64,000 nucleotides of DNA from an uncultured Chloroflexia bacterium (GTDB lineage: Bacteria > Chloroflexota > Anaerolineae > Anaerolineales > E44-bin32), in NCBI GenBank assembly GCA_963797485.1, contig CAWCPF010000002.1, positions 223,217 through 287,216 on the forward strand. Direction: 5' to 3'. The notes under the pieces are model-generated. The model worked only from the letters and a program-made list of their open reading frames with translations. It did no database searches and had not been told where the DNA came from. Position numbers and translations under genes: made by a program. Shown here piece after piece: positions 5,021 to 61,534 of the stretch (its first letter is position 1; each line of letters starts with the position of its first letter).

Positions 5021-5499
5021 ATGGAACCCGTCATCCACCATCAGGTGCGTCTCGCCTGCAGAGCCCAGTCTGCCTTCGAGCACTTCACCCGTGGCGATCT
5101 GCTTGTGAGAATTCCTCACGAATGAGGCCGAAGTCGATCCCGATGTCGGCGGCAAGTACGAGCTGGCCTGGGATCCCGATAACAAACCTCAGGACAGCAC
5201 CGTCGGCTGCCGTAGCACCGCCTTGGCCGACGGCGAGTTGGTGGCGTTCGATTGGAAAGGACCGACGGCGTTCGACGCCGTCATGAACCACGCCCGGCCC
5301 CTGACCCATGTGGTCGTGGCCTATCACCAGCTGGAGGACAGCCCCGCCGCGGCCTGCGACGTAAACCTCATCCATTCAGGCCTGGCGGCCGGGTCCCGGA
5401 TGGGCCGATGCCAGAGCTTATTTCGACCATGCCTGGCAGCAGGTGTTCGAAGCGCTGGCCCAGCTGGTGTCCGCCCCCACGTTGCCTTCTCAACTTTGA
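5021..5499 (+). CDS. SRPBCC/AHSA1-like (START-fold) protein, at least two apparent frameshifts
   Basis: Three frames read MEPVIHHQVRLACRAQSAFEHFT..., then EFLTNEAEVDPDVGGKYELAWDPDNKPQDSTVGC...DWKGPTAFDAV...LIHSG, then WRPGPGWADARAYFDHAWQQVFEALAQLV..., with a stop at 5497-5499. The shifts lie near 5105 and 5385. Confidence 0.5.
5103..5122. promoter_or_regulatory. CRP/FNR-type palindrome variant, TTGTGA-gaattcc-TCACGAA (7-nt spacer)
   Basis: Read directly from the sequence. It lies inside the SRPBCC gene at the site of its first frameshift. Confidence 0.35.
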
Positions 5500-5689
5500 G
5501 CCGCGATCGAGGCGAAAGGAGAACCCATGCTGTACGCGTCTCGATGCCACGTTCATCCAGATCCACGCCCACGGGGGAACCATCGTCTCACCCAAGCACG
5601 CAGTCCCAGATGTCGGCTGGGTCGCCTACTGCCTTGACACGGAAGGCAACCGCTTCGGGATGATGCAGACAGATCCAAGCGTCAGTTGA
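5500..5689 (+). pseudogene. VOC/glyoxalase-family protein, C-terminal fragment (frameshift near 5545)
   Basis: AAIEAKGEPMLYA / LDATFIQIHAHGGTIVSPKHAVPDVGWVAYCLDTEGNRFGMMQTDPSVS matches the second VOC module. It starts immediately after the SRPBCC stop codon. Confidence 0.6.
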
Positions 5690-6503
5690 GGTTCCGGGCT
5701 GAGGGTTCGGCGGGCATCTGCATCTTCCCCGCTGGCAGAGCCGATCCTGCCTGCCCTACCCCGGCCGAGGCCGGAACAGCTTGTTTCGGCCGGCGCGCGG
5801 CAGTCCTGTCGGGCAGCAAGCCGGATAGCGTTCGATAAAGGGTCAGAAACAGCACGCTTCCACCGGCAAACCAGTACATGCGCTGAACCCACACGGATGG
5901 GCTGTCGGTGCCGCTCCACATGCCATGCGCCAGGGCGCCGACAAAGGCCACGAAGCTCAGGATGTGGATCAGGCGCCACAGCCTGGGACCGAGCGACTTT
6001 CTCATGTAGAAGCTCAGGCTGACAACGATCAGGGCGTAGAAGCCCAACTGGCCCACGCCAACCCACACGGGCTTGTAATTGACGCTTCCAAACGGCATCA
6101 TCACCTGGACGAGGCTGTAATCGATGAAGCGATCTCCGGTCAGGATTAGCGCGTGGAACAGGGCGACGGCCAGCCCGAGCAGGCTGGTGAATTGATGCAG
6201 ATCGAAGGCCGTAGGCCCTCCCGGCCACAACCGCGCCAGCCGATTGCTGATCATGGCCCCGAAGACCGTAGAAGCCCACAGCAGGCCGAAGGCCACGAAG
6301 GCACTCGAACGGGACAAGTACCAATAGGCCTTGGGCGATTGACCGAAGAGTGAAAGCGCCAGGTTCGGGGCCCAGGTCGGCAGGACGCTGACAGCCACGA
6401 AGGCGCCAAGCACTACCGAGAGGAAAAGCACCAGCACGGCCCCCATGGGCAGCGCGGCTTCATAGATTTCTCCCCCTTCGTGTCCCGTGTCATTGCGAGG
6501 CAT
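5682..6503 (-). CDS. ferric-reductase-like transmembrane domain protein (MsrQ/FRD family)
   Basis: 273 aa with ~6 TM helices and conserved His residues (LHQFTSLLGLAVALFHALI, IHILSFVAFVGALAHGMW), typical of di-heme FRD domains. Confidence 0.7.
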   Translation of the reverse strand: MPRNDTGHEGGEIYEAALPMGAVLVLFLSVVLGAFVAVSVLPTWAPNLALSLFGQSPKAYWYLSRSSAFVAFGLLWASTVFGAMISNRLARLWPGGPTAFDLHQFTSLLGLAVALFHALILTGDRFIDYSLVQVMMPFGSVNYKPVWVGVGQLGFYALIVVSLSFYMRKSLGPRLWRLIHILSFVAFVGALAHGMWSGTDSPSVWVQRMYWFAGGSVLFLTLYRTLSGLLPDRTAARRPKQAVPASAGVGQAGSALPAGKMQMPAEPSARNLN

Positions 6504-6509
6504 CGTCGG

Positions 6510-7436
6510 TTAGCTCCACAGGTAGTTGTCCAGATTGAGGCTCACGTCCATCTGCCCATCCTCCCGGACCAAGAGACCGGCCAGGTGAGGCCGCCGATCG
6601 AGCCAGGCCAGGCCGGCACGCGCACCCTGGATCAGCACCGCCTTGGCGGCCGCCTCGGCCTCCAAAGCGGATGGCGCCAACACAGTGGCAGTGAGCACAT
6701 CCGTCGCCGCCGGGCGCCGGGTCTGGGGATCCAGGATGTGGTGCATTTCAATCCCGTCGCGCTTCCAATGCCGGAAGTCACGGCCGGAGGTGGCCACACC
6801 GCCGTGTTTGAGCGCCAGCATCGCCAGCGGGCGGGTTCCTTTCGGGCGCGGATCGGTGATCGCCACCGGCCATGCCCACCCTCGGCTGGGCGGCCCGCTG
6901 ACGGCAATGTCCCCGCCGGCGTCCACCAGCACCGGGCCGTAGTGGCTGAGGCGCTGAGCGGCTCGGTCCGCCGCCCAGCCCTTTCCCACGCCACCCAAAT
7001 CGATGTGCACGCCTGAAGGAAGCTCTACCAGCTCTAGATCGAGGTCACAGCGGATGTCCCACCATCCGCCGGCAGCGGAGCCAGCGACGGCCCCGACCCC
7101 AGCAAGCTGCTGTGTCTCCAGGTGCTCGAATGAGCGATCATAGCCGATGGCGAGCATGGCATCCCTGAGCGTCGGATCGACCAGGCCTTCGGTCGCACGC
7201 GCCGCCTCCAGGCTGGCGGCGATGACTTCGCACAACTCGGGGCTGACTCGGACCGGTGATCCCGACTGCTCGTTGAGGCGGTTCAGTTCGCTGTCCGGAC
7301 GAAAGCGGCTCATGCACTGCTCCCACGCCTCGAACCAGGATGGGACCTGAAGGAGCGCCTCACGGGCCGGGGTGCGGGGGGCATCCAGCACCGCCCGCAT
7401 CGACGAGCCCATGGCTCGGAAGTCGATTTCTTCCAT
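6510..7436 (-). CDS. apbE: FAD:protein FMN transferase (ApbE family)
   Basis: MEEIDFRAMGSSMRAVL..., SRFRPDSELNRLN, DLGGVGKGWAADRAA, VLVDAGGDIAVSG and HHILDPQTRRP are ApbE hallmarks. I chose Met 7436 (AGGAA 6 nt upstream), not the long low-complexity extension to 7709. Confidence 0.8.
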   Translation of the reverse strand: MEEIDFRAMGSSMRAVLDAPRTPAREALLQVPSWFEAWEQCMSRFRPDSELNRLNEQSGSPVRVSPELCEVIAASLEAARATEGLVDPTLRDAMLAIGYDRSFEHLETQQLAGVGAVAGSAAGGWWDIRCDLDLELVELPSGVHIDLGGVGKGWAADRAAQRLSHYGPVLVDAGGDIAVSGPPSRGWAWPVAITDPRPKGTRPLAMLALKHGGVATSGRDFRHWKRDGIEMHHILDPQTRRPAATDVLTATVLAPSALEAEAAAKAVLIQGARAGLAWLDRRPHLAGLLVREDGQMDVSLNLDNYLWS

Positions 7437-11627: not shown

Positions 11628-11645
11628 TTGTGAATTCCTTCACAA
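11628..11645. promoter_or_regulatory. CRP/FNR-type palindrome TTGTGAATTCCTTCACAA
   Basis: Perfect 7-4-7 palindrome, ~75 nt upstream of the glycosidase start. Identical 18-mers occur at 25992 and 61517. Confidence 0.5.
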
Positions 11646-11718
11646 TTCCCCGCAAAGTCCTAGAGCCTCGACCGAGGCCTGGCCTGCGGTGGTGGTATCC
11701 TGATCCGAGTTCGCCGGC

Positions 11719-13333
11719 ATGGGCATGGAGCCCCGAGAACACGTGAAGCGACTCAGACGAGCGGCATGGTTGATCGCCAGCCTGGCCATGATGGCGGCGC
11801 AGGGACAGAGCGGATCGGCCGGCGAGTGGCGACAGATTGCCGATGGCGTCAGCTTCCAGATGTTCAACCTGCCCGGCCCAAATCGCGCCTACGTCGTTCT
11901 CATGGACCGAAGCAATCCCAATGTGACCCTGGACACGGCCATCGCCGGGGGACGGATCACCGAGGGCAAGGAAACCGTCAGCCAGATGGCGGAGCGCTAT
12001 GACGAGACGCTGGGCTCGTGGGAGCCGGCCTGGGGATCGCGTGACCAGGTGGTGGCGGTCATCAACGGCTCTTTCCACAACGAGGAGACCGGCAGTCCGC
12101 TGAGCGGGATGGTGCAGTCCGGCTGGTACCTCAAGCGTTTTGATGATCTGGGGGGCGGCAGCGGGTTCGCCTGGAAGCTCGATCGGGGCGCCTTCATCGG
12201 CGGGTGCGTCCGCCATCCTCCGGAGGGCCAGTTGGTCACGTATCTCGAATCCGGAGACCAGCAGATCATCGATGGGATCGACGACCGTCGACAGGGGGAC
12301 GAGCTGGTCGTGTACACACCGGCCTTTGATTTCCGGACGCACACCTCCGACTTGGGGATCGAAGTGGTGGTCGAACTCGATCAACCCTTCACCATCCTGC
12401 CTTATCCCCAGATGGTGCACGGGGTCGTGCGGGCGATCCATGTCGACCAGGGGAACTCCCCCATCCCATTTGATTCGGTCGTCCTGTCGGCCAGCGGCGA
12501 TGCCGCCAAGACTCTCCGGGCTCACGCCCAAGTGGGAGCCCGAGTTCGGCCTGTCCACACTGATCCAGCACTTTAAAGCCAACTGCCGCACGCCGGATGG
12601 GGACAACTGGTCGGAAACGTATGCCAGCCTGTCGGGGAGCTTCGTCTTCCTCGAAGATGGAGAGATCCAATCGTTTGACGATCTCGGGGCGATAACGCCC
12701 TCCCCGCGGACGGCCGTTTGCTTCAATGATGACAGCATTTACTTTGTGGTAGTGGATGGCCGCGATGCGGCCCACTCGATCGGGATGACGATGGACGGAT
12801 TGGCCCACTTTTGCCGTGATCGGCTGGACGCCGATTGGGGCATTAACCAGGACGGCGGCGGGTCGTCAACGCTTTGGCTGAACGGCAAGGTCATGAATCG
12901 TCCGTCGGATGGGCACCAGCGCGCCGTGGCCAACGGTCTCATGATGGTCGAGGTCAAACCACCAGAATTCTCCGATCGCTACCACCCCGGCGACAGCATC
13001 CGGATAAAGGACCTACTCGATTTTCGCCTCGGGCCGGGGAACAACTACCGGGGGCCCGGGGACCTGCCCGCTGAAAGCCAGGTGACGGTTGTACACCACC
13101 TCAATGGACTGGACGGGGTGCGGGCCACGAGTGAGTATTGGTGGCAGGTCGAGTACCAGGGACAATTGGGATGGGTTCCGGAAAGCGCCATGGAACTGGT
13201 CACGCCGGCGGGGCCGACCCCTTCAGACCCGGGACAGACCCAGATTGTGCCTCCAGACCCCGTTCAGGCCTTGCTGGCCAATCCTAGGTGGATTTGGTCC
13301 CAGGCCCCGTGGCTGAGCCAGGTCTGGCCCTGA
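11719..13333 (+). CDS. phosphodiester glycosidase family protein (DUF2233/NAGPA-like) with C-terminal SH3 domain, apparent frameshift near 12535
   Basis: N-terminal signal-like segment, INGSFH..., then in the second frame PRTAVCFNDDSIYFVVVDGRD...GINQDGGGSSTLWLNG, and an SH3b-like tail (YWWQVEYQGQLGWVPESAMELV). Confidence 0.7.
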
Positions 13334-16874: not shown

Positions 16875-17348
16875 ATGAAGACCCTACAAACGGTCCCATT
16901 CCTGTTTGTGATATTCCTCACAAGCTGCGCCGGAGCTGGGACGGCCGGCTCGCCTGCTTTGGCCGCGCCCAGCCGCACTCCGGGCCAGGCGCCCCCGAGC
17001 GCCACGCCCGCCTTGCCGGCGGTCACCCCGCTGTCTGTTGACCAACTGCCTCCCGAGGCGGCGGCCATGGTCGGGCGTGTCCAAGCCGATCTGGCTGAGC
17101 GCCTGTCGGCCCCGCCGGGCGCGACCATGACCTTGCTCTCGGCCGAGGCCGTGGTGTGGCCCGACGCCAGCCTGGGCTGCCCCCGCCCGAACACGGGCTA
17201 CATCCAGGTGGAGACGCCTGGCTACCGGATCGTGCTGTTGGCCAACGGGGGCGACTACACGTACCACACGGATGCGAGGGACAACTTCGTGCTGTGCATG
17301 AACGGGGAGCCGGAGAATCCGGGGACCGAGCCCCAGGTGGCACCGTGA
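16875..17348 (+). CDS. lipoprotein, unknown function (paralog A)
   Basis: Signal peptide plus lipobox (FLFVIFLTSC), a Pro/Ala-rich linker, and a conserved C-terminal module VVWPDASLGCPRPNTGYIQVETPGYRIVLLANGGDYTYHTDARDNFVLC. Confidence 0.7.
   Translation: MKTLQTVPFLFVIFLTSCAGAGTAGSPALAAPSRTPGQAPPSATPALPAVTPLSVDQLPPEAAAMVGRVQADLAERLSAPPGATMTLLSAEAVVWPDASLGCPRPNTGYIQVETPGYRIVLLANGGDYTYHTDARDNFVLCMNGEPENPGTEPQVAP
16906..16923. promoter_or_regulatory. CRP/FNR-type palindrome TTGTGAtattccTCACAA inside the lipoprotein signal-peptide codons
   Basis: Read directly from the sequence, 31 nt downstream of ATG 16875. Confidence 0.35.
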
Positions 17349-17601: not shown

Positions 17602-18135
17602 ATGGGCATGAACACGCTGCGAATGACCTCCCTTGTCTTGGCCGTTTTCCTTGTCGGCTGCGCCGGAAGGCCCGCCCTGCCCACCGCCGGAGCCTCCGGG
17701 GTTCCGGCCACCCAGGCCAGCCGGCCTTCGGCCACACAGGCTCAGCCATCCACCCCTGCCGTCACTCAACCCCCGGCCGCCACCCCGCTGCCAACCCAGA
17801 AGCTCCCCCAGGATGCGCGTTTGATGGTCGACAGAGTGAAGGCAGCTCTGGCTGATCAGCTGTCGGTCAAGGGGGAGACGATCCAACTCGCGCTGGCGCA
17901 AGCCGTGATCTGGCCCGACGCCTCTCTAGGCTGCCCACGCCCGGGCACCGATTACATCCAGGTGCAGACGCCAGGCTTTGTGATCTCCCTGCAGGCGGGC
18001 GGAGAGACCTACCTGTTCCACACCGACCAAACCTCCAACTACGTCCTTTGTCCGGCCGGCGAGGGGCCCTTTCCTGAGATCCCGGTCACGCCCTCCGGCA
18101 TCCAGGATGGTGTACCCTGGCTTCCGGTCAACTAG
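17602..18135 (+). CDS. lipoprotein, unknown function (paralog B)
   Basis: Lipobox LVGC, a PT/Q-rich linker, and the same module VIWPDASLGCPRPGTDYIQVQTPGFVISLQAGGETYLFHTDQTSNYVLC. TAGATT lies 6 nt upstream of the ATG. Confidence 0.7.
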   Translation: MGMNTLRMTSLVLAVFLVGCAGRPALPTAGASGVPATQASRPSATQAQPSTPAVTQPPAATPLPTQKLPQDARLMVDRVKAALADQLSVKGETIQLALAQAVIWPDASLGCPRPGTDYIQVQTPGFVISLQAGGETYLFHTDQTSNYVLCPAGEGPFPEIPVTPSGIQDGVPWLPVN

Positions 18136-22729: not shown

Positions 22730-24254
22730 CTACTTGGGAAATCGGGTCAACACCGTGGCCGGGGAGGGCACCTGAAGCCGCGATCCGATGTCGACGGATT
22801 GGCCATCTTTGGCGACCAATCCGCCCTGGAAGATCCCCAAGTGGGTGTCCGGGGCGGTGGAGTCCATATCGACATACGCCTGGCCGAGCAGGTAGCCGTC
22901 CGAATCGACGGCGCAGGATGTGACCTTCCCCACGACGCGCCCACGATGATCGACCACCGGATCCCCGTAGTGCGCCATGCGCACGCCCTTATCATCGAAG
23001 CGGAAGCGGACGACTTCGCCCCGGCGTTCGTGCTCCTGTGCCAGGAACGCGCTGCGCCCGGCGAACCACGGCTTATAGGTCTTGACATAAGCGCCAAACC
23101 CGGCATGGCCAACGCCGAGACCCATCTCCCCGGCCATCTCGTGACCGTACAGGGGCAGCCCGGCTTCCGTCCGCAGCGAATCGCGAGCCCCCAGACCCAC
23201 CGGCTTCAGACCCATCGGATGTCCGGTTTTCAGGATTGCTTCCCACAAAGCCGGGCTCGCGTCCGGATGCACGAAAAGCTCATACGCCGTGCGCTCACCG
23301 GTATAGCCGGTCCGGCTGACCACCAGATCGAACTTGCCAAAGCGGCCTTCCATCACGCCGGCCCACTTCAGCCCGCTCAGCCTCTCCGCCGAAGCGTCGT
23401 CGGTCCCCAGGCCCAGCAAGATGTCCCGGCTGCGGGGGCCCTGCAGGGCCAGGTCGACGCGCATGTCGCCGCGCGGCATCGGGCAGGCGCAGGTTGCGCA
23501 GGCGGCAGTGGCGCCCAAGGGCCAGCGCCCACGGCCGGGCTTCGTCGATCCGGGCGGAACCGCTCTGCACCGCCTGGAGCCAGGCCCAATCCTTGTCATC
23601 ATTGGAGGCGTTGACCACTATCATGTAGGTTTCGGCGCCCCGGCGGTAGATCATCAGGTCATCGAGCACGTGCCCATCCGGGTCCATCAAATGTGTGTAA
23701 TGCAACTCGCCGATCTCGAGCTTGGCCACGTCGTTGCCGACGACGCTATCCAGGAACGCAGCCGCGCCGCTGCCCTCGGCCTGGTAGACGCCCATGTGGC
23801 TGACATCGAACAAGCCGGCCGCATGGCGCACGGCTAGATGCTCCTCGACCACCGACGTGTACCAAACCGGCATTTCCCAGCCGGCGAAGGGGACCATCTT
23901 GGCGCCCAGGGACTTGTGGGCTTCGAACAGCGCCGTCCGGCGCAGAGTCTCGGGCTCGGCGTCGTCCCAGGCGAAGGCCGGGAGCGGATCGCCTTCATCG
24001 GCTGGGTTCACGCCGATGTACCAGGGCTTGTCGGTCCCGTCGGCTATCTGCTTGGGCGCGCCGTCCTTGGCCGGACCGGCGTCGCTGACGACCACCGGCC
24101 CGGGCAGTTTTCGCTCCAGGTCTGCCGGATCGAAAGCCACAAAGCCGTCGGAGAGATCGCGCAGCCAGGTTGACAGACGCGGCACGGCTTCGGCGGGGAC
24201 GGCCAGGGACCACACCGAGCCGTCCTTGGGCCGGGTCAGGCTGGCCTCGATCAA
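22730..24254 (-). CDS. gcvT: aminomethyltransferase (GcvT-like) module, apparently the C-terminal part of a SHMT fusion; frameshifts near 23500 and 24262
   Basis: RRTALFEAHKSLGAKMVPFAGWEMPVWYTSVVEEHLAVRHAAGLFDVSHMG..., then DLALQGPRSRDIL...SRTGYTGERTAYELFV...GLGARDSLRTEAGLPLYGHE. Upstream, a degenerate second GCV_T-like domain links to SHMT. Confidence 0.7.
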
Positions 24255-24268
24255 CTGGCCCCCGGCGT

Positions 24269-25856
24269 CTACGCGTACACGACAGTTTCCCCGGGCGCCA
24301 GCTCGTCCGCCCGGGCCGTGGTGGCCCAGGTCAGGAATTCGCCTGCCTCCGGTCCGTCGATCTGGATCGCCTGTCGCCCCTTCCCCGGAACGGGGTCATC
24401 CAAATAGTAAAAATGAGGGTAGCCATGTTCCCCCGGCTGGGTATCGATACCGGCAGCCTGAGCGAGATCGCGCACGCGCAGGCGAACATCGTTCAGGACC
24501 TCGAAATCGACCTTGGCCCGGGCCGAGCCTCCCTTGCGGCCGCCCGAGGCATACGGCAGGCAGGCCTTGAGCACACGGGCAATCAGCCGGCCCACTTCCC
24601 GGCTGCCATCCGCGTCGAAGCCGCGCTGCGTGATCCAGGGCGTCCCCAGCCGGATGCCGGAGGGGTTAAAGAGCCGAGCGGTCCCCAGGGATCGTCTGGC
24701 GGTTCACGACCAGCCCGGCCAGATCCAGGATGCGGGCCGCCAGATCCCCGGAGAGTGCCGTGCCGTCTTCCCCGGTCACCGACTTGCAGTCGACGTTGGT
24801 GAGATGGGTGTCGGTCCCCCCGAACGGAATGCGCAGGCCTTCGCCCGCCAGGGCTTCGGTCATAGCCACACAGTTGGTGACGATCTGATGCTGGAGTGTC
24901 TTGAATGCCTGCGAGGCGGCGAGTTTGAAGGCCACCGCCTGCGCGGCGATGGTGCTGATATGCGGTCCACCCTGCTCGCCCGGAAACACGGCCCGATCGA
25001 TGGCGCGCGCCAGCTTGGGCGACGCCGTCAGGATCACCGCCCCGCGCGGACCACACAAGGACTTATGGGTGGTGAAGGTGATCACGTCGGCGAAGCCAAC
25101 TGGCGATGGGTAGGCTCCGGCGGCCACCAGTCCGGCCACGTGGGCGATGTCGGCCAACAGGTACGCGCCCACCTCGTCGGCGATGGCGCGGAAGGCGGCC
25201 CAGTCCACAGCCCAGGCGTACGACGAGAACCCGGCGATGATCATCTTGGGCTGGTGCTCGCGGGCCACGGCCCCGACCTGGTCGTAGTCGATCCTTTCCG
25301 TCTCGGGATCGACGGTGTAGTGCACGGCATGGAAGTACTTGCCCGACCGGTTGACCGGCGAACCATGGGTGAGATGGCCGCCGTGGAGCAGGTTCATGCC
25401 CATCACGGTGTCGCCCGGCTCGAGCAGCGCGTGGTATACGGCGTTGTTGGCCGGGGCGCCAGAGAGGGCCTGGACGTTGACGTACAGGTTGTCGGCCGAC
25501 ACCCCGTTGGCGGCGAAGACCTCGGCGCAGCGCCGGCGGGCCAAGGACTCAACCAGATCCACGTATTCGACGCCCTTGTAGTAGCGTGGATCCGAGTAGC
25601 GGCGGTAGTGCGCCAGGCGCGCCGGGATGTCCAGCAGCTCGGACTCGGTCATCCGGCGTGTGTCCTCATCCGGATAACCCTCGGCGTAGATGTTGTTAAA
25701 GGGCGTCCCGAGCACGTCAAGCACGGCCCTGGGGGCACTGCTCTCGGATGGGATCAGGATCAGCTTGCGGTACTGGCGCTCGGTTTCGAACTCGATGATG
25801 TCGGCCACAGCCGGATCGAGCTCGGCCAGGCTCCCGCGGATCAGGAAATCAGGCAT
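24269..25856 (-). CDS. glyA: serine hydroxymethyltransferase with a C-terminal extension continuing into the GcvT-like module; frameshift near 24668
   Basis: LILIPSESSAP, TFTTHKSLCGPRG (the PLP lysine motif), and ...IPGDRSA / NPSGIRLGTPWITQRGF. The open frame then continues (...PHFYYLDDP...QIDGPEAGEFL...) with no RBS or start before the AMT domain. Confidence 0.8.
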
Positions 25857-25927
25857 GCAGGGCTCCAAGAGGGACGTTGCCATTTGCCGGGAGGACTGCG
25901 CCTCGACCGGCACCGGGTTGCGTCTGG

Positions 25928-25956
25928 ATTGTATTCCGCGGCCATGGAGGGGTCAA
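25928..25956 (-). promoter_or_regulatory. sigma-70-type promoter of glyA (TTGACC-17-TACAAT)
   Basis: Read on the minus strand. The -10 context TACAATCCAGAC is repeated at 35023. Confidence 0.5.
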
Positions 25957-25991: not shown

Positions 25992-26009
25992 TTGTGAATT
26001 CCTTCACAA
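25992..26009. promoter_or_regulatory. CRP/FNR-type palindrome TTGTGAATTCCTTCACAA
   Basis: Perfect palindrome centred ~45 bp upstream of the glyA -35 hexamer. Confidence 0.5.
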
Positions 26010-27677: not shown

Positions 27678-27752
27678 TGGGCGGAACAGGACTTCGAACC
27701 TGCGACCCCTTCTGTGTAAGAGAAGTGCTCTAACCAGCTGAGCTATCCGCCC
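27678..27752 (-). tRNA. tRNA-Val (anticodon UAC)
   Basis: Cloverleaf folded by hand: acceptor GGGCGGA/TCCGCCC, D arm GCTC..GAGC, anticodon stem CTTCT/AGAAG with loop CTTACAC, T stem GCAGG/CCTGT. CCA is not encoded. The T loop has 8 nt (TTCGAAGT), possibly a 1-nt indel. Confidence 0.85.
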
Positions 27753-37190: not shown

Positions 37191-37208
37191 TTGTGAAATT
37201 CCTCACAA
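37191..37208. promoter_or_regulatory. CRP/FNR-type palindrome TTGTGAaattccTCACAA
   Basis: In the divergent region between the flavoprotein (start 37129) and the M48 peptidase (start 37317). Confidence 0.5.
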
Positions 37209-37316
37209 ACTATCCGGCGCCGGCGGGTGACACGAGTGTAGGCCAGGCCGGCCCGCCAGGTCAACGGCTGGAGCGCCCCCGATGAAGCCCCAGAAGCGCG
37301 GAGTACAATCCCCCCC

Positions 37317-38474
37317 GTGGAAACCGAGCCGTTGAGACTTGACCCCGAACGCCAGGCCCAGGCGCGACAGTACGCCGCAATCCGCCGCCGGCTGATGGTG
37401 GTTGAGCTGGCACTGGGGGCGTCCTACCTGGCCTTGTGGCTGGCGGCCGGCTGGGCGATCCGTGTTCGTCACGCCCTGGAGATCACGCCGCCTTTCGCCG
37501 GCGCGTGGTGGCTGGTGCTGCTGGGGACGGCGGCCGGCCTGGGCCTCCCGTGGCTGATCGCCAGCCTGCCTCTGAGCTACCATTCCGGATTCCGGCTGCC
37601 CCATCGCTACGGGTTGTCGACTCAAACCGTGCGCGGCTGGATCGCCGATCAACTCAAGGGCTTGGGCCTGTCCGCCGTGATCGGCGCGCCGCTGCTGGTC
37701 GGCTTGTACGCCGTGATCCGCTGGCAGCCCGGCGCGTGGTGGCTGTTTGCGTCGGTGCTTTACACCCTGGTCACGGCCGTGCTGGCGGCGCTGGCCCCGG
37801 TGCTCTTGCTGCCGGTGTTCTACAAACTCACGCCTCTGGAGGACAGCCGCTCGGACCTGCGCGACCGGCTGCTCGCCCTGGCGGCGCGGGCCGGCGCCCG
37901 GATCGAGGGGGTCTACCGCATGGACATGAGCCGGCGCACCCGGGCCGCCAACGCGGCCCTCACCGGTTTGGGGCGCACCCGGCGCATCGTCATCGGCGAC
38001 ACGCTCCTGGACGAATTCACTCCGGACGAAATTGAGACCGTGCTGGCGCACGAGCTTGGACATCACGTTCACCGGGACATCCCTCTCGGTTTGGCGGTTG
38101 AAGCCTTGCTCAACTTGCTGGGTTTCTGGCTGGTTCAGGGGGGCCTGGTGCTCGGCGCGGGCTGGTTTCAATTGAATGGACCCGCCGATCCGGCCGGTCT
38201 CCCCTGGATCGGCCTGCTGTTGGGCGCGTTCGGGCTGTTGACGATGCCGCTCTCCAACGCCTACTCGCGCTGGCGTGAGTCTCTGGCGGACGATTTCGCC
38301 CTGAAGACGACCCGCAAGCCGGAGGCCTTCGCCCGCGCCATGACCCGCCTGGCCAATCAGAACCTGGCCGAGGCGCAGCCGCCCAAATGGGTCGTGGCCC
38401 TGCTGTATTCGCATCCTCCGCTTCAGAACCGCATCGACAAGGCGGCGAGGCTCGGCGCTCGCCCCACAGGCTAG
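37317..38474 (+). CDS. M48 family (Ste24/HtpX-like) zinc metallopeptidase
   Basis: HELGHHVH motif, multiple TM helices. GTG start with TACAAT 7 nt upstream. Confidence 0.8.
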   Translation: METEPLRLDPERQAQARQYAAIRRRLMVVELALGASYLALWLAAGWAIRVRHALEITPPFAGAWWLVLLGTAAGLGLPWLIASLPLSYHSGFRLPHRYGLSTQTVRGWIADQLKGLGLSAVIGAPLLVGLYAVIRWQPGAWWLFASVLYTLVTAVLAALAPVLLLPVFYKLTPLEDSRSDLRDRLLALAARAGARIEGVYRMDMSRRTRAANAALTGLGRTRRIVIGDTLLDEFTPDEIETVLAHELGHHVHRDIPLGLAVEALLNLLGFWLVQGGLVLGAGWFQLNGPADPAGLPWIGLLLGAFGLLTMPLSNAYSRWRESLADDFALKTTRKPEAFARAMTRLANQNLAEAQPPKWVVALLYSHPPLQNRIDKAARLGARPTG

Positions 38475-39804: not shown

Positions 39805-40014
39805 ACGGACATCCAACGCTCTTGCACGCCGCAAGACCACGCAACTTAGCACCCGTCCAGGGTCCAGCACCTGGGAAGTTGAGGCCAAGGCCGCACCCTT
39901 CCAGTGCGCAGGATCAACCGTCTCTTTGGGAGAGAGGAGGCGAGCGACCCTCACACCTTGCGGAAGACTGTAAATTCCTAGAGTCAAGTGAACACTCATA
40001 GGAGGAGGAGAAAC

Positions 40015-42416: not shown

Positions 42417-42417
42417 C

Positions 42418-47103: not shown

Positions 47104-47122
47104 TTGTGAAAACTTTCACGAA
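47104..47122. promoter_or_regulatory. CRP/FNR-type palindrome variant TTGTGAaaacttTCACGAA
   Basis: Centred ~45 bp upstream of the TAGAAT hexamer of the CDF gene. Confidence 0.4.
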
Positions 47123-47167
47123 CGCACCGTTGCCATCGGTCCGGCGCAGGGCAGGTAGAATCGCCGC

Positions 47168-48082
47168 ATGCAGAACCGCCCGCGCCTGACCCGTTTTGCC
47201 TGGTTGTCCATCTTTGCGGCCCTGGCCACCATGGGCCTCAAAGCCGGCGCCTACTGGCTAACGGGTTCGGTCGGGCTGCTGTCGGACGCGCTCGAGTCCG
47301 GCGTCAATCTGATGGCCGCCGTCCTGGCGCTGATCGTCCTGACCGTCGTGGCGCGCCCGCCGGATGAAGAACATGGCTACGGCCACGAAAAAGCTGAGTA
47401 CTTCTCCAGCGGCGCCGAGGGGGCATTCATCCTGATGGCCGCCGTCGTCATTGCCGTCAATGCGCTCCGGCGCTTGCTCTCCCCGGTGCCGCTGCACGAG
47501 CTCGGGCTGGGGGTGGCAATCTCGGCTGTCGCCTCGATCATCAACCTGGTGGTCGCCCAGGTCCTGCTGAGGGTCAGCCGCCGGGCCCGATCGATCGCGC
47601 TGGAAGCCGATGCCCGGCACCTGCTTTCGGATGTGTGGTCGTCGGGGGCGATCTTGCTGGGCGTGGCCGTGGTAGCCATCACCGGTTGGGAGCCCTTGGA
47701 CGCGCTGGTCGCCCTGGCGGGCGCGGCCATCATCACCTGGGCCGGGCTAAACCTGGTGCGCCGCTCGATCCTGGGCTTAATGGACACAGCCCTGCCGGAG
47801 CCCGATCTTCAGGCCGTCCGGTCAATTCTGCAAGCCTACGAAGCCCGGGGCGTGCGCTACCATGCCCTGCGCAGCCGCCAGTCAGGCGCCCGATCGTTCG
47901 TGTCGCTGCACATTCAGGTGCCGGGGAGTTGGACTATTCAGCAGGGGCACAATCTGCTGGAGACTATCGAGGCGCAGGTGCGTCGTGCGCTTCCTTCGGC
48001 GAGTGTGTTCACCCACATCGAGCCGATCGAGGATCCCAGCTCGTGGGACGACCAGCGCCTCGACCGGACAAACGCGGCCTAG
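47168..48082 (+). CDS. cation diffusion facilitator (CDF) family transporter
   Basis: SDALESGVNL, HLLSDVWSS, and a C-terminal cytoplasmic domain. TAGAAT lies 6 nt upstream of the ATG, with no SD. Confidence 0.85.
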   Translation: MQNRPRLTRFAWLSIFAALATMGLKAGAYWLTGSVGLLSDALESGVNLMAAVLALIVLTVVARPPDEEHGYGHEKAEYFSSGAEGAFILMAAVVIAVNALRRLLSPVPLHELGLGVAISAVASIINLVVAQVLLRVSRRARSIALEADARHLLSDVWSSGAILLGVAVVAITGWEPLDALVALAGAAIITWAGLNLVRRSILGLMDTALPEPDLQAVRSILQAYEARGVRYHALRSRQSGARSFVSLHIQVPGSWTIQQGHNLLETIEAQVRRALPSASVFTHIEPIEDPSSWDDQRLDRTNAA

Positions 48083-50243: not shown

Positions 50244-50744
50244 TCAGATCGGTTTGAACGCCTCGAAGGGCCCGCCGCAGGCATTGCATACGTGGATTGA
50301 GCGGCATTGAGTCGACCCGAAGGCGTTCGTCAGACGCGTATTCTCCGAGCCGCAGTAGGGGCAGGCCGCCGGCGCGTCCAACACCAGGCGGACTTGGCCC
50401 CGGTGAAGGGGCGGGGGCGCCAGGCCGAACGCACGCAGCTTGGTCCGCGTCTCAGGCGAAAGCCCATCGGTTGTCCAAGGAGGGTCGAAACAGAGCTCCA
50501 CCTCAACCGGTTCGTATCCAAGTCCGGCCACGGCCAGTTCAATCTGCTGGCGCATGACCTCCAGCGCCGGGCAGCCGGCGAATGTGGGCGTCATGACCAC
50601 ACGGGCGCGGCTGCCGTCCACCTCGACCTGTCGAACCACCCCTAATTCGACGACCGAGACAACCGGGATTTCCGGGTCCATGATCCCGTCCAAAGCTCGC
50701 CAGATGGCCGACGTGTCCGCCCGGCTGTCCATGCTCGCCGTCAC
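50244..50744 (-). CDS. paaD: 1,2-phenylacetyl-CoA epoxidase subunit PaaD
   Basis: An MIP18/DUF59-like DPEIPVVSVVELGVV region plus a C-terminal Cys cluster (CPYCGS...CNACG). Confidence 0.8.
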   Translation of the reverse strand: MTASMDSRADTSAIWRALDGIMDPEIPVVSVVELGVVRQVEVDGSRARVVMTPTFAGCPALEVMRQQIELAVAGLGYEPVEVELCFDPPWTTDGLSPETRTKLRAFGLAPPPLHRGQVRLVLDAPAACPYCGSENTRLTNAFGSTQCRSIHVCNACGGPFEAFKPI

Positions 50745-51508
50745 CAGGCCACCCCGGGATGTGCCCGAGCGACGGATTGCATCTCCGTCAGCAGGCCGAC
50801 CAGGTGCTCACTGTGCGCGTGCCGGGATCGAACCGGGGCGTGGTCCGCCTGTGGCGCCGGAAGGTCGATGGCCTCAAGAAATGCACCCACGTCGGACATC
50901 CAGGTCCCGCTCCAGGCGGAGAGACCCGGCAACCAGCCTTCGGCTTCCAGGTGGTCGTCTCCCGGCATGGGGTCCCACAACTGCAGGGCGAAGGGCCAGA
51001 GCTGCTCGAGGGCTGCCTGCATTCGCTGGCGGCTCTCCTGGGTGCCCAAAGCCAGACGCCGGACCCAGGATTGGGTGTGGCGCAGATGGTAGATTTCTTC
51101 CTGGGAGACCTTGGCCGCCACTTCGGCCATTGGCCGATAGGCTGATCCAGCCAGCGCCGGCAGCCACACCGCCTCGGCGGCATCGAAGAGATACTGCCTG
51201 AGCATGGAGACGGCCCAATCGCCATTCGGCAGCTCAACCAGTTGGGCGTTTCGGTAGAAGGGCGCCTCGCGCTGGAAGACCAGCTCATCCGGGTAGATTT
51301 CGGGGTCTTGTCCGATGAGCGCGGCGTGCAGCCGATACCAGAGCCAGGCGTGGCCCATCTCGTCCACGGCCAGATTGGTGAAGGCGATGTCCTCCTCCAG
51401 GATGGGCGCATGTCCGGTCCATTCGGAGTTGCGATGGGCCAGGATCATTTCATCGTCGGCCATGGCCAGCAGCCGCTCGGCGAGGCGCGCCTCGTACTCG
51501 GGCATCAC
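50741..51508 (-). CDS. paaC: 1,2-phenylacetyl-CoA epoxidase subunit PaaC
   Basis: LAMADDEMILAHRNSEWTGHAPILEEDIAFTNLAVDEMGHA. Confidence 0.8.
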   Translation of the reverse strand: MMPEYEARLAERLLAMADDEMILAHRNSEWTGHAPILEEDIAFTNLAVDEMGHAWLWYRLHAALIGQDPEIYPDELVFQREAPFYRNAQLVELPNGDWAVSMLRQYLFDAAEAVWLPALAGSAYRPMAEVAAKVSQEEIYHLRHTQSWVRRLALGTQESRQRMQAALEQLWPFALQLWDPMPGDDHLEAEGWLPGLSAWSGTWMSDVGAFLEAIDLPAPQADHAPVRSRHAHSEHLVGLLTEMQSVARAHPGVAW

Positions 51509-52044
51509 TCGCCCCCCTGCGGATCATCGGCCTGCCCAGCCTTGATCTTGCGGATCAAACTCTCCGTGCGATAGTACGACTGATGGCGGAAGGGTTTGTC
51601 CTTGGCCGCCTCGAACCACACGGCATCCTCAGCCTTCGAACTGGCGGTGATGGCCGAGTGAGGCGCCACCCACCACACCCAGGTGTCGTCCGGGAAGCTC
51701 GCCACCGCCCGCTGGAGCGCAGCGCCTGGAGAAGCGGCGGTCACCTGGCCCACCCACGCATGCTGCCCTTTTCGAGCCGGCTTGGTGAACACATCGTAAG
51801 GCGCCTCGGCCCCCTGATCGGGCGCGGCCGGCAGGCCCTCCAACCCTTGTCGGGTGACCTGGCTGATGTCCGCTGCGCGGACGACCCACAAGCTGACACA
51901 CTCCGGCCGCCGAACAAACACATCACGGGCGTGAAGCAAGGCCATTTCGGGATCGGTGGCGTGGACGGTTCCGCAGTTGAGATGAGGCGAGTCAAAAGTG
52001 TCTTGTTTGAAGACGTAAAACCGGTCGCCCTGCGAGTCGCTCAA
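51505..52044 (-). CDS. paaB: 1,2-phenylacetyl-CoA epoxidase subunit PaaB, tandemly duplicated domain (~179 aa)
   Basis: TTG start overlapping the paaA stop (GGAGG upstream). The first half has [40 protein letters not shown]. The second half has YDVFTKP..HAWVGQV...WVWWVAP...[10 protein letters not shown]. Confidence 0.7.
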
Positions 52045-52991
52045 GCCGCCTCCGAGGCTGTGTGCCGATCCGCATACGCTTGCAGCGCCTCGCGCACCCA
52101 GCGGCCGTTCGCGTGTGCCTGCCGGCGCGCCTGTAGACGCTCGCGGTTGCACGGCCCGTGGCCGTTGATCACCTGCCAAAACTCATCCCAATCGATTTCA
52201 CCAAAGACCCAATGGCCGCCGGCCTCGTCAAAGCGCAGCGCCTCATCGGGCACCGAAAGCTCCAGCGCGTGGAGCTCGGGGATCAGATTATCGACAAAGG
52301 TTTGGCGCAGCTCATCATTGGTGCGGGTCTTGATCCCCCACCGGATCAGCTGGGGTGAATTGGGCGAGTCGGTGTCGCGCGGGCCGAACATCATCAGCGT
52401 CGGCCACCACCAGCGGTTGACGGCATCCTGGACCATCTGCTTCTGGGCGGCTGTGCCGCGCGCCATGCGGATGACCATTTCCTTCCCCTGCTTCATGTGG
52501 AAGCTCTCTTCGGCGCAGATGCGCAGGTTGGCGCGTGAGTACGGCCCATACGAACAACGCGCCAGCATGGTCTGATTCAAGATGGCCGCGCCGTCGACGA
52601 AATAGCCGATCACGCCGATATCGGCCCAGCTCAGGGTGGGGTAGTTGAAAATGTTGGAGTACTTGGCTTTCTCAGACAGCAGGGCTTCGATCAGATCCCC
52701 GCGGTCGGCGCCCAGCGTCTCGGCGGCATGATACAGATACTGGCCATGGCCGGCCTCGTCCTGGACTTTGGCCAGCAGCACCAGCTTTCGCCGCAGATTA
52801 GGGGCACGCGTGATCCAGCCGCCTTCAGGCAGCATCCCGACCACTTCGCTGTGAGCGTGCTGGGAGATCATCCGCAGGAGCTGCCTGCGGTAGGCGTCCG
52901 GCATCCAGTCGCCGGGCTCGATCTTCTCGCCCCGGGCGACGCGCGCCTCGAACTCGGTTAGCTTCTCCGGATCGAGCGCCTCGGTGTCCAT
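52041..52991 (-). CDS. paaA: 1,2-phenylacetyl-CoA epoxidase catalytic subunit PaaA
   Basis: Di-iron ligand regions are [23 protein letters not shown] and [10 protein letters not shown]. Confidence 0.85.
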
Positions 52992-53060
52992 CGGGGTGTC
53001 TTCTTTAACTTGTCTGCCGGCCACGCCCCTATTATAAGGGCATCACCCGGAGCGACCGGG

Positions 53061-56238: not shown

Positions 56239-57703
56239 TCAGGCGATGGATTTCTCCTGAGGCAGCGCCGGGCGGCAGCACAAGACCAGTTCCTTGGCGG
56301 CCTGCACCTCATCCAGCCGGCCAAAGGGCGTGGTGTGGGGCGCCGATTTCAAAGTCTCCGGTTCGGTGCGCGCCTCCTGAGCGATCTTCAGCAGCGCCTC
56401 GGCAAAGGCATCCAAGGTCTCCTTGGGCTCCGTCTCGGTCGGCTCGATCATCAGGGCTTCATGGACAATGAGCGGGAAGTAGTACGTCGGCGGGTGAAAG
56501 CCATAGTCCATCAGCCGTTTTGCGACATCGAAAGCGCGGATGCCGGGGGCATCCTCCCACTGGCCCTCGACCACGAACTCGTGCATGCAAACTCGATCGA
56601 AGGGTGCGTAGTAGGTGCCGGCCAGGCGGGATTTGAGGTAGTTGGCATTCAGTACGGCATGGTCGGCGATTTGACGCATGCCTTCCCGTCCGTACATCTT
56701 GAGATAAGCCATGGCCCGGACGAGCAGTCCGAAGTGGCCGTGGAAAGCCTTCACCCGGCCGATGGTCTTGGCGGGCGTGATCAGCGAATAGGTCGGCCGG
56801 CCTTCCGGATCGACCGTCCGCTCAACCAGGGGGGCAGGCAGGAAATCCGCCAGAGCCTGGGATGCGCCTACGGCGCCAGCCCCGGGCCCGCCTCCACCGT
56901 GCGGCGTTGAGAAGGTCTTGTGCAAGTTGTAGTGCAGGACGTCGAACCCCAGGTCCCCGGGGCGGACCACACCCAGCAGCGCGTTCATGTTGGCACCGTC
57001 GCCATACACCAGCCCGCCGCAAGCATGTACCGCTTTGACCACATCCAACACATGCTCTTCGAACAGCCCTAGGGTGTTCGGGTTGGTCAGCATCAGGCCG
57101 GCAACGGTCTCATCACAGGCGGCGCGCAGCGCTTCGAGGTCGACATTGCCTCGAGCGTCTGAAGGCAGTTCCACCACCTGCAGGCCGCTCATGGCCGTGG
57201 TGGCGGGATTGGTGCCGTGGGCCGAGTTGGGGATCAGGATCTTGACCCGGGCCGTGTCGCCCCGAGCGCGGTGGTAAGCCTTGATCATCAGGATGCCGGT
57301 CAGTTCGCCATGCGCGCCCGCCGCAGGCTGCAAACTCACCTGGGCGAAGCCGCCGATCTCCTGGAGCCAGCACTGAAGCTCATGCATCAACGCCAGATTG
57401 CCCTGCACCGTGGCTTCAGGCTGGAGCGGGTGCGAGAAGGCGAAACCCGGAAGCCGGGCGGCGTCTTCATTCAGCTTGGGGTTGTACTTCATGGTGCAGG
57501 AGCCCAAGGGGTAGATGCCGGTATCGATCGAGTAGTTGAGCTGAGAAAGCCGGACGAAATGGCGGACGGCCTGGAATTCGGATACTTCGGGCAGGGGCAG
57601 GTCGTCTCGCACCAAACCCGGCGGCAGTTCGGCCTGCGGGACATCGGGATCCGGGAAGGTCACACCGGTCCGCCCGGGCGAGGACAGTTCGTAGATCAGC
57701 GGC

Positions 57704-57711
<8 letters not shown>
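56239..57711 (-). CDS. gcvPB: glycine dehydrogenase (aminomethyl-transferring) subunit 2
   Basis: 490 aa. The PLP-lysine region is HYNLHKTFSTPHGGGGPGAG. Confidence 0.9.
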
Positions 57712-59046
<1,335 letters not shown>

Positions 59047-59047
<1 letters not shown>

Positions 59048-59439
59048 CAGTGGGCGCGCCCCTCGCAGTACTTCTCGTAGGCCGGAGCATCCATCAGGTC
59101 TTTGACCTGCGCGGCATCGGCCAGTTTGACCTTCACCATCCAGGCCTGGCCATAGGGGTCCGAGTTCAACCATTCAGGATGACCGGCCAGATCAGCGTTA
59201 ACCGCCACCAGCTCGCCCGACACCGGCATGTAGACATCCGAAGCGGCCTTGACCGACTCGACCACCGCCACGACGTCTCCCTTGTTCAGGTGCGCCCCGG
59301 GCTCGGACGTGACTTCGAAATAGACCACATCCGAAAGCTGCTCCTGGGCGAAGTCACTGATGCCAACGGTACCCTGCTCGCCTTCCACCTTGATCCATTC
59401 ATCGTTTTCGGTGTACCTGCAGTCCGCCGGAACCTTCAT
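59047..59439 (-). CDS. gcvH: glycine cleavage system H protein
   Basis: MKVPADCRYTENDEWIK...VESVKAASDVYMPVSG (the lipoyl-lysine motif). AAGGAG lies 6 nt upstream of ATG 59439. Confidence 0.9.
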
Positions 59440-59479: not shown

Positions 59480-59697
59480 AATAAAAAAGAGGACGCACGT
59501 TGAATTCATGTGCGCCCTCTGTCGGGAACCTGAGAGATTTACCGCCTGTCGGCGGCTTGCCCCGTCGGTGTCTGTCGACTTTCCAGAGGCTCAGCCAGAC
59601 CGGGTCCTTTTACCTGAGAGTTTCACCCCTGCGCCGTTCGCGTGCGAGGGGCTTGCCCCTTCGGTGCCCGGGCGAACCGGGTCTCTCCCCGACCTGT
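59480..59697 (-). promoter_or_regulatory. tandem glycine riboswitch with an intrinsic-terminator expression platform
   Basis: On the minus strand, aptamer 1 is GGGGAGAGACC..GCACCGAAGGGGCAAGCC..GAAACTCTCAGGTAAAAGGAC. Aptamer 2 is CTCTGGAAAG..ACACCGACGGGGCAAGCC..AATCTCTCAGG..GACAGAGGGC. The terminator is GAGGGCGCAC-11 nt-GTGCGTCCTC-TTTTTTATT, and its 5' arm overlaps aptamer-2 P1. Confidence 0.9.
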
Positions 59698-59714
59698 CTT
59701 CAATTGTGTCTCGC

Positions 59715-59743: not shown

Positions 59744-59839
59744 GCCGAGGGCGCGGTGCAAGCATGGGACAGATGTCACCAAGTGTGGGGAGGTGAGCGG
59801 ATGGGGGGCTAGAAGCTGGAGGCCGGCAGCCAGCGGCGA

Positions 59840-60265: not shown

Positions 60266-60301
60266 GGGTTGAGACAGGTGTCAACGACGATCGATGAGAT
60301 C

Positions 60302-61417
60302 TCAATCGGAATACAGCCGCGGCACGCGGGCGCTGAGCCCGCACACGACCTCGTAGCCGACGGTGTGCCACACACGGGCCAAATCCTCCGGGCGCAGCTT
60401 TTCGCCCTGCTGTTCACCGACGATGACGACTTCATCGCCGATGGCCGCCTGGGGCACGTGGTCGAGGTTGATGATGGTTTGGTCCATGCACACCCGCCCG
60501 ACCACCGGCGCCCACACGCCGTGAACCAGCACACCCGCCCCGGCTTCGCGCCGGAAGCCATCCCCATAACCGACCGGGATCACGCCCAGCCGCTCGTCCT
60601 TCTGGGTGACATACACGTGGCCGTAGGACACACCCGTCCCGGCCGGGACGTCGCGGACGGTGGTCAGGCGCGCTTTCCAAGCCAGCGCCCGATGGAAGTT
60701 GGGAGGCAGGCGGACCTCCTCGGAGGGGTTCATGCCATACAGGGCGATTCCGGGGCGAACCATGTCGAAGCGCGCCGAGGGGCGGGTCAACGCGGCGGCG
60801 GAGTTAGCGGCGTGCACCAGAGGCGGGCGCATGCCGGCCGCAGTCACCTCGCTCAGCAGGTCGGTGAACACCGCCTCCTGCCGGTCGCTGCTGGCGGCCT
60901 CGGGTTCGTCGGCTCGGGCGAAGTGAGTAAACAAACCTTCCACCTCGACACCCGGCAAGCCGCGCAGCGCCTGCAACAAACCGAAAGCTCCCTGGGGCGC
61001 GGCGCCCAGCCTGGTCATGCCGGTGTCGACTTTCACGTGCACCCGGGCGGTGCGGCCGGCGGAGCGAGCCGCCGCCGCCAGCGGCTCCAACTGGGCGTCA
61101 TCGTACACGGTGATCGACACGCCCTGCCCGACGGCCTCCGCCAGGCGCGAGTTGGGGGTCTCTCCCAACACCAGCGTCGGGCCGTCGACACCGCCCTGGC
61201 GCATCTCAAGCGCTTCATCGATCCGGGCCACCCCGCAGTAGTCTGCGCCGGCCTCGACCGCCCGGCGCGCCACCGGGACCAGCCCATGGCCATAGCCGTT
61301 GGCTTTGACGACCGCCATTACGCGCACGCCGGTCAACTCACCGACGGCGTGCACATTGTGGGCGATAGCGCCCAGATCGATCTCGAGCCAGGTGGACAAT
61401 CGGTCGCGTGAAGCCAT
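60302..61417 (-). CDS. alr: alanine racemase
   Basis: The PLP lysine region is AVVKANGYGHG. Also YGMNPS and VSYGH motifs. I chose Met 61417 (TATACT 10 nt upstream). Confidence 0.85.
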   Translation of the reverse strand: MASRDRLSTWLEIDLGAIAHNVHAVGELTGVRVMAVVKANGYGHGLVPVARRAVEAGADYCGVARIDEALEMRQGGVDGPTLVLGETPNSRLAEAVGQGVSITVYDDAQLEPLAAAARSAGRTARVHVKVDTGMTRLGAAPQGAFGLLQALRGLPGVEVEGLFTHFARADEPEAASSDRQEAVFTDLLSEVTAAGMRPPLVHAANSAAALTRPSARFDMVRPGIALYGMNPSEEVRLPPNFHRALAWKARLTTVRDVPAGTGVSYGHVYVTQKDERLGVIPVGYGDGFRREAGAGVLVHGVWAPVVGRVCMDQTIINLDHVPQAAIGDEVVIVGEQQGEKLRPEDLARVWHTVGYEVVCGLSARVPRLYSD

Positions 61418-61516
61418 GGATTCGAGCAGTATAAACGCGTTGCCGGTCAATGCACACCGCCGAGGGTATAATCCGGCGCCGATGGGTGCGCTTTACGCCA
61501 CAGCGCCGCAGCCGAT

Positions 61517-61534
61517 TTGTGAATTCCTTCACAA
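61517..61534. promoter_or_regulatory. CRP/FNR-type palindrome TTGTGAATTCCTTCACAA abutting the tgt start codon
   Basis: The last A of the palindrome is the A of ATG 61534. It lies ~100 bp upstream of the divergent alr start. A TATAAT box is at 61467. Confidence 0.5.

Follow-up and report, generated by a model that had tools for sequence, protein, structure and literature searches.

A dense family of Rex operator-like palindromes in an uncultured Chloroflexota lineage

A 64-kb stretch of DNA from an uncultured Chloroflexia bacterium (contig CAWCPF010000002.1 of assembly GCA_963797485.1; the whole stretch is called the window below) contains a real and non-random family of 18-bp palindromes, for which, judged by its letters, a Rex-type operator family is the best label. 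The original prediction, made from the window alone, had described a CRP/FNR-type palindrome family, a name that covers the core only. A palindromic protein-binding family with that core is indeed present, but its half-site is the 6-7 nt TTGTGA(A) of the Rex consensus: divided as 7 + 4 + 7, the motif reads TTGTGAA-TTCC-TTCACAA, a perfect match to the published Rex operator, with the CRP/FNR core TGTGA-N6-TCACA nested inside it. Rex is a redox-sensing (NADH/NAD+) repressor that combines a winged-helix domain with an NAD(H)-binding Rossmann domain. We lean towards the view that the sites are operators of a dimeric transcription factor, most likely Rex, distributed over an unusually large set of promoters in this lineage. 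What is known here is the kind of operator; what is unusual is its copy number, its positions relative to promoters, its asymmetric spacer and its strand polarity.

Motif inventory and half-site identity

In the window, whose G+C content is 62-68%, five matches to TGTGA-N6-TCACA were found where 0.03 were expected from dinucleotide-preserving shuffles, so the excess claimed for the five core copies is well founded; allowing up to two mismatches to TTGTGA-N6-TCACAA, there were six sites against 0.90 expected. Scored against the longer form, TTGTGAA-N4-TTCACAA, three of the sites in the 64 kb are perfect, two carry one mismatch and one carries two. The members, with one doubtful case, are:

5103..5122, plus strand: TTGTGA-GAATTCC-TCACGA, of doubtful membership; the spacer has 7 nt, and an SRPBCC-like frame runs across the site
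11628..11645, plus strand: exact 18-mer TTGTGAATTCCTTCACAA; an ATG at 11719 is 73 nt downstream
16906..16923, plus strand: variant TTGTGATATTCCTCACAA, within codons 11-16 of a lipoprotein signal peptide (MKTLQTVPFLFVIFLTSC)
25992..26009, plus strand: exact 18-mer TTGTGAATTCCTTCACAA, flanked by two minus-strand genes, M1 peptidase and glyA
37191..37208, plus strand: variant TTGTGAAATTCCTCACAA, intergenic between a divergent DAO flavoprotein / M48 peptidase pair
47104..47121, plus strand: variant TTGTGAAAACTTTCACGA; TAGAAT (47156-47161) 34 nt downstream, then a CDF transporter gene
61517..61534, plus strand: exact 18-mer TTGTGAATTCCTTCACAA, between alr (minus strand) and tgt (plus strand)

The three identical 18-mers and the three variants are as originally reported in both position and sequence, and the flanks of the identical copies are unrelated to each other. 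The 5103 copy was likewise transcribed correctly, but its membership is doubtful: the SRPBCC-like frame is shifted exactly at the site, and dropping one base restores ...GDLLVKFLTNEAEVDPDVGGKYELAWDP...; the copy may be a true site with a 6-nt spacer and an indel from assembly, or else the match may have arisen by chance. A further "degenerate" copy proposed at 39969 lacks a palindrome and is no member of the family. The spacer, described as an invariant ATTCC, has this form in six of the seven palindromes listed for the window but not at 47104, which has AAACTT, nor consistently in relatives, where it drifts (AGCG, GAGT, AGATAA, ATTCTT).

The half-site was examined in 14 sites, from the window and related loci, that came from a core-only search and whose outer bases were not selected on. 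T occupied position 1, the base preceding TGTGA, in 14 of 14 and A occupied position 18 in 13 of 14, while A7 and T12 were each present in 8 of 14. Because the outer T and A are near-invariant in these unseeded matches, the half-site is TTGTGA(A) and not the aaaTGTGAt of E. coli CRP. Beyond positions 0 and 19 there was little information, and the E. coli-type 22-bp CRP site (aaaTGTGAt...aTCACAttt, with A/T-rich outer flanks) is not what these sites look like. The S. aureus Rex operator is TTGTGAAW4TTCACAA (PMC2883068), and the generalised Rex consensus of Ravcheev et al. 2012, as quoted in PMC5317091 and PMC5355995, is TTGTGAANNNNTTCACAA.

The same word is tied to rex outside this lineage. An exact-match scan of one genome per species gave at least 106 loci and a metagenome scan 120 more, and the counts of rex- and CRP-linked loci below refer to the 226 in total among the matches listed; single loci are designated L plus a number where one must be told from another. 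The 18-mer lay just upstream (12-60 nt) of a rex gene in 48 of the 226 (23 genome and 25 metagenome loci), in Gemmatimonadota (Gemmatimonadaceae), Zixibacteria and Ignavibacteria (Ignavibacteriaceae); the rex genes were found by tblastn with a B. subtilis Rex query, and the matches were confirmed by the Pfam architecture PF06971 + PF02629. In Gemmatimonadaceae the box directly abuts a -10-like TAGCTT or TAGCAT, the classic geometry of autorepression. A CRP-like gene, by tblastn with an E. coli CRP query, was near the 18-mer in only one of the 226 (L221, outside the lineage).

Some occurrences elsewhere were of other kinds. In other Chloroflexota (Anaerolineales and Caldilineaceae) a cytochrome P450 gene stands on one side of the exact 18-mer and a DoxX-HtpG (Hsp90) pair on the other (L092 3062; L044 5128), and at L067 2941 its neighbours are genes for a P450 and a DnaJ-domain protein; the P450 / DoxX-HtpG placement is conserved and is atypical as a Rex target. 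A 1.6-kb metagenome contig of 47% GC (L183, 240-1230) carries nine Rex-consensus boxes besides the seed 18-mer, with differing A/T-rich spacers, spanning about 1 kb on both sides of an open reading frame (ORF) of 176 amino acids, an unusually dense operator array. At L216 (6881-7024) a 63-bp unit, comprising the motif and the initial codons of a membrane-protein gene on the minus strand, is tandemly repeated three times.

Conservation, copy number and orientation

Conservation upstream of orthologous genes, one of the checks proposed with the original prediction, was observed at tgt, CDF, ftsY, minC and M48. At tgt the same letters stand in the window and in L017, L086, L114 and L168, the last A of the site being the A of the ATG in each, and the site is thereby kept unchanged in four relatives at 73-80% DNA identity; the 44 nt between TATAAT and the motif are constant in length in three genomes (window, L017, L086) and variable in sequence. 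At the CDF, ftsY, minC and M48 sites the half-sites are kept and the spacers differ between relatives. Orthologous sites pair TTCC in L025 with AGCG in L121 and ATGT in L081 with GAGT in L158, and the CDF-transporter site, AACT at 47104 in the window, is the exact TTCC 18-mer in its L148 orthologue. The M48 loci were fetched through M48 homologues, hence without seeding on the motif, and the same position upstream of M48 holds TTGTGAAGATAATCACAA in L227 (78% amino acid identity; spacer AGATAA) and TTGTGAATTCTTTCACAA in L228 and L229 (67% amino acid identity; spacer ATTCTT), while the site is missing there in L230 (63% amino acid identity). Fixed half-sites with a drifting centre are the footprint that would be expected of a dimeric protein reading two half-sites.

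Separately, a one-mismatch Rex-like box (TAGTGAAATCCTTCACAA or TAGTGAAATTCTTCACAA) is found at L017 189, L086 6659 and L114 447, where it is conserved inside a gene for a beta-eliminating-lyase-like protein, in coding DNA (...MANLQAVSEILHKH...); the box may have a function, or its agreement with the coding letters may be coincidental.

At the DNA level the window shares 73-77% identity with loci of metagenome-assembled genomes (MAGs) labelled "uncultured Chloroflexia", three of which (CAVSID, CAWAND and CAWDZQ) gave 21 of the at least 106 genome-scan loci; by M48 homologues, the next relatives are labelled Anaerolineales. Densities were counted as sites with at most two mismatches per 100 kb, with the seed excluded except for the window, where all sites were counted:

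Lineage MAG loci: 5.95 additional sites per 100 kb
Lineage metagenome loci: 4.5 additional sites per 100 kb
Window: 9.4 sites per 100 kb, all counted
Other high-GC taxa: 0.57 additional sites per 100 kb
rex-adjacent loci: 0 additional sites per 100 kb

The lineage therefore has one site per approximately 10-17 kb, roughly ten times the density of other high-GC taxa; it has thus multiplied the site some tenfold or more, by extrapolation to a few hundred per genome. For comparison, 36 motifs with up to three mismatches have been counted in the whole genome of S. avermitilis (PMC5355995) and 54 Rex motifs in S. aureus (PMC2883068).

The suggestion that the asymmetric spacer holds extra information was also borne out. 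All window sites with an ATTCC-type spacer read ATTCC on the plus strand; where exact sites are neighbours on one contig of the three MAGs, 10 of 12 had the same orientation, among them four of four across 0.8 Mb of one contig with mixed local gene orientation. When loci were oriented to read ATTCC, 18 of the 21 lineage MAG loci showed negative GC skew (mean -0.024; p = 0.0015), as against 60 of 109 loci in control taxa with the same 18-mer (p = 0.34). The skew was equal in co-oriented genes (-0.021), anti-oriented genes (-0.018) and intergenic DNA (-0.019), which argues that it is of the replication type and not a by-product of transcription. These counts come from a small sample that was seeded on the exact 18-mer and that contains a few pairs of orthologues. 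Orientation also correlates, less strongly than with skew, with the direction of flanking genes: in a hand count based on crude gene calls, about 14 sites lay between two genes co-directional with ATTCC and five between two opposite ones.

Several other readings of the spacer and its polarity were considered and rejected. A compositional artefact would be expected in other taxa, which are unbiased, and a 2% skew predicts only an approximately 52:48 split; a gene-orientation artefact does not agree with the like skew in genes of either direction and between genes. A KOPS- or Chi-like word is contradicted by ATTCC, TTCCTTC, GAATTCC and similar sub-words, which have no strand skew outside the palindrome. 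The spacer could serve as a Shine-Dalgarno sequence in the reverse orientation only (as in L216, with AAGGAA 8 nt before the ATG), and most lineage sites face the opposite way.

Promoter geometry, mechanism and rival explanations

Promoters of the lineage resemble TGn-extended -10 boxes, often without a clear -35, and many genes look leaderless, with TAGAAT or TACAAT followed by the start codon after 6-7 nt (leaderless-type examples: window 47156-47170 and 37304-37319; L227, L228 and L230). About ten sites are followed by a predicted -10 box after 22-61 nt, and two (tgt and L025 7215) are preceded by one, with divergent predicted -10 boxes at four sites; the boxes stand at variable distances, and no promoter element at a fixed distance from the sites was found. 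In the window, site 11628 is followed after 50 nt by a predicted TGn-extended -10, TATCCT (11696-11701). Site 25992 is 9 nt beyond the M1 peptidase stop and 78 nt upstream of glyA (24666-25913, minus strand), from which the spacer reads AGGAAT and which has a -10-like TACAAT on the minus strand at 25928-25933. The CDF transporter gene next to site 47104 is leaderless by prediction, its ATG lying 6 nt after TAGAAT, and TATAAT (61467-61472) is 44 nt upstream of site 61517, whose final A is the A of the tgt ATG. The original prediction placed most copies in promoter regions, and they are mostly intergenic or promoter-proximal; the exceptions are 16906, which is 31 nt past the lipoprotein ATG at 16875 and within signal-peptide codons, and 5103, inside a reading frame.

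If the favoured reading holds, each Rex monomer would read one TTGTGA(A) half-site, the 4-6 bp centre would be read only indirectly and would thus drift between relatives, and occupancy would track the NADH/NAD+ ratio by analogy with characterised Rex proteins. The presence of Rex in this genome, its role as the binder and the sign of regulation are all inferred. The NAD(H)-linked enzymes among the neighbours are dihydrolipoamide dehydrogenase, a 2-oxoacid dehydrogenase E1, a zinc alcohol dehydrogenase and the DAO flavoprotein, and glyA stands beside glycine-cleavage genes. Because most sites are some 22-61 nt upstream of the predicted -10, simple repression by promoter occlusion is not obviously the mode.

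The sites resemble the Rex operator (ROP) of Streptomyces, Bacillus, Staphylococcus, Thermus and others in being an 18-bp inverted repeat, TTGTGAA-N4-TTCACAA, with conserved half-sites and a variable spacer, and in the identity of the 18-mer found next to rex in other phyla. They differ from it in having about ten times as many sites per kb as other high-GC taxa, a TTCC-preferring and strand-biased spacer, a location mostly upstream of the predicted core promoter, and many housekeeping targets. A number of observations weigh against Rex as the binder. Neither the window nor some 250 kb of sequence from lineage loci yielded a rex gene. The density in the window (six sites with at most two mismatches in 64 kb) far exceeds known Rex regulons, and many neighbours are housekeeping genes (tgt, alr, ftsY, minC, an S1-domain protein, peptidases). 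Judged by predicted -10 boxes, the site centres are at approximately -44 to -83 (M48, -116; tgt, +40), unlike the overlap of a simple repressor. An A/T-rich 4-bp spacer is optimal for S. aureus Rex binding (PMC2883068), and the spacer preferred here is TTCC and not A/T-rich, with ATCC, TTCT, TTGC, GTCC and AGCG as others. Finally, a symmetric homodimer cannot sense orientation, and it therefore explains neither the asymmetric spacer nor the orientation bias, leaving the polarity of the spacer unaccounted for.

The predicted positions of the sites would better suit a global regulator of the CRP/FNR family (cNMP- or redox-sensing) that activates or represses from class I- or class II-like positions, as centres at about -44 to -83 before predicted extended -10 or leaderless promoters suit an activator better than a Rex-type repressor. 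Such an assignment would also account for the shared core and for the frequency of the sites, since global CRP-type regulators typically have one per 10-17 kb, and TTGTGA-N6-TCACAA sites are reported for some CRP/FNR members, HcpR among them. The family thus resembles known CRP/FNR sites (E. coli CRP, GlxR, CRP-Mt, B. subtilis Fnr, HcpR) in its core, in numbering, by extrapolation, hundreds per genome and in its activation-compatible upstream positions. It departs from them in the T and A at positions 1 and 18, in its preference, as in Rex boxes, for A7 and T12, and in the linkage of the exact word to rex elsewhere: the E. coli-type A/T-rich flanks are absent, the base before the core was T in every unseeded match, and the 18-mer was tied to rex in 48 of the loci and to a CRP-like gene in one, itself outside the lineage. 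The proposed search for CRP/FNR genes found none in the window or the lineage loci, and the asymmetric spacer and its strand polarity would be left equally unexplained. We consider a CRP/FNR-family regulator possible, though unlikely.

The polarity itself suggests two further proposals, both tentative. One, which we also regard as unlikely, is that a Rex-type operator present at an extrapolated several hundred copies per genome has its TTCC/GGAA centre held one way relative to the replication strand, serving or shaped by a process that depends on the direction of replication; candidate processes would be a hairpin on the lagging-strand template, a polar protein barrier or strand-specific mutation of the loop. 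To our knowledge, no transcription-factor operator family has been described with a centre oriented by the replication strand. The other, quite improbable in our estimation, is that the sites are primarily a replication-direction-dependent element built on or shaped from a Rex-type palindrome, whose 7-bp arms and GGAA/TTCC centre would form a hairpin on one template strand or a polar protein-DNA barrier. This would account for the one-way orientation along replichores, with ATTCC on the C-rich strand in the lineage loci as opposed to those elsewhere, a skew alike in both gene orientations and intergenic DNA, concordance of adjacent sites and a uniform plus-strand ATTCC in the window. On the other hand, the evidence comes from a small sample seeded on the exact 18-mer, the hairpin is weak, orientation moderately follows the direction of the downstream gene as well so that the two effects are not cleanly separated, and the part conserved at orthologous sites is the half-sites and not the loop. 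Known replichore-polar words (KOPS/SRS, Chi) are similar in their density of about one per 10-15 kb and their strong bias relative to the GC-skew strand, but they are short non-palindromic words that act alone, whereas the polarity of the present sites is confined to the centre of a palindrome, outside which the sub-words are unskewed.

A short mobile or dispersed repeat (REP/MITE-like), which the original prediction had offered as its alternative, or an RNA hairpin acting as terminator, stabiliser or 5'-UTR element, seems to us very improbable. Three identical copies, a perfect 7-bp inverted repeat, the location of many copies 4-30 nt past the stop codon of an upstream co-oriented gene, and a motif abutting the start codon at tgt and L081 would fit such an element. 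Yet the conserved unit is only 18 bp, without flank similarity or target-site duplication, and copies occur in both orientations relative to genes. A mobile repeat was rejected because an alignment of the flanks of 36 sites shows no more than a weak preference for T/C (position 0) and A/T (position 19), and because the window region orthologous to L066 lacks the site without a clean indel; the retention of half-sites at orthologous positions while the spacer changes also speaks against the dispersed-repeat suggestion. An RNA element was rejected on a hairpin energy of only -5.1 to -7.7 kcal/mol in a genome of 64% GC, on variants that break pairs 6-13 and 7-12 without compensation, and on the lack of a U-tract; an Rfam search of the window found no family at the motif sites, its only hits being a tandem glycine riboswitch and a tRNA elsewhere. 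REP/BIME elements are similar in being many-copy intergenic palindromes, often directly after stop codons, but the present sites are 18 bp long, lack a GTAG head, clusters and flank conservation, equal a transcription-factor consensus, and are retained at orthologous positions while their centres drift.

If the binder is Rex, an NADH/NAD+ sensor would act as a genome-wide regulator of housekeeping, glycine/serine amino-acid and dehydrogenase genes, and the activator-like positions of its sites would widen the roles presumed for the Rex family. If the orientation bias holds on complete chromosomes, this would be a rare regulatory palindrome that carries replication-strand information in its non-contacted centre; such polarity would bear on the interplay of replication, hairpin-prone DNA and transcription-factor sites. 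Even if neither is true, an apparent "CRP site" in a high-GC uncultured bacterium would still be better annotated as a Rex box.

Neighbouring genes and further features of the window

The neighbours of the window sites are glyA, the divergent DAO flavoprotein and M48 genes, the CDF transporter, alr, tgt, a lipoprotein and a 285-amino-acid protein. Pfam confirmed the earlier naming of glyA, the DAO flavoprotein / M48 pair, the CDF transporter and alr; tgt was identified from its translated sequence and not through Pfam, and the 285-amino-acid product of 11719-12576, previously called a phosphodiester glycosidase, had no Pfam hit. At related loci the neighbours are dihydrolipoamide dehydrogenase (lpdA), 2-oxoacid dehydrogenase E1, zinc alcohol dehydrogenase, pirin and ftsY, and further an S1-domain protein, minC, GNAT, SnoaL, an M29 peptidase and PMT_2.

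The tgt locus has some features of its own. The gene (61534-62662, plus strand) shifts frame at approximately 61900-62000 in the window, and its L017 orthologue is intact (371 amino acids); this and the shifted frame at 5103-5122 hint at indel errors of long-read assembly, or at pseudogenes. Upstream of tgt, which is without a Shine-Dalgarno sequence, TATAAT-N9-ATG (window 61467-61536; L017; L086) opens a frame of 21-23 codons that crosses the motif (always as ...CEFLHN...) and stops shortly past the tgt ATG. It could be a leaderless upstream ORF coupled to translation of tgt.

Glycine metabolism is represented by gcvT, a probable gcvH and glyA at 23295-25913, and by a tandem glycine riboswitch at 59516-59700 on the minus strand (Rfam RF00504, 68.6 and 33 bits), which precedes glycine dehydrogenase subunit genes at 57704-59173 and 56239-57711. 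The lipoprotein gene at 16875-17348 has a paralogue at 17602-18135, both on the plus strand; the two have lipobox signal peptides and share a C-terminal domain (...WPDASLGCPRP.TGYIQV.TPG...) with no Pfam match. Three tandem paralogous multi-pass membrane proteins at 3-4440, judged by eye only, are possibly of a glycosyltransferase-type family. A probable paaABCD cluster occupies 50244-53024, and a tRNA gene is located on the minus strand at 27678-27752 (Rfam RF00005, 66 bits).

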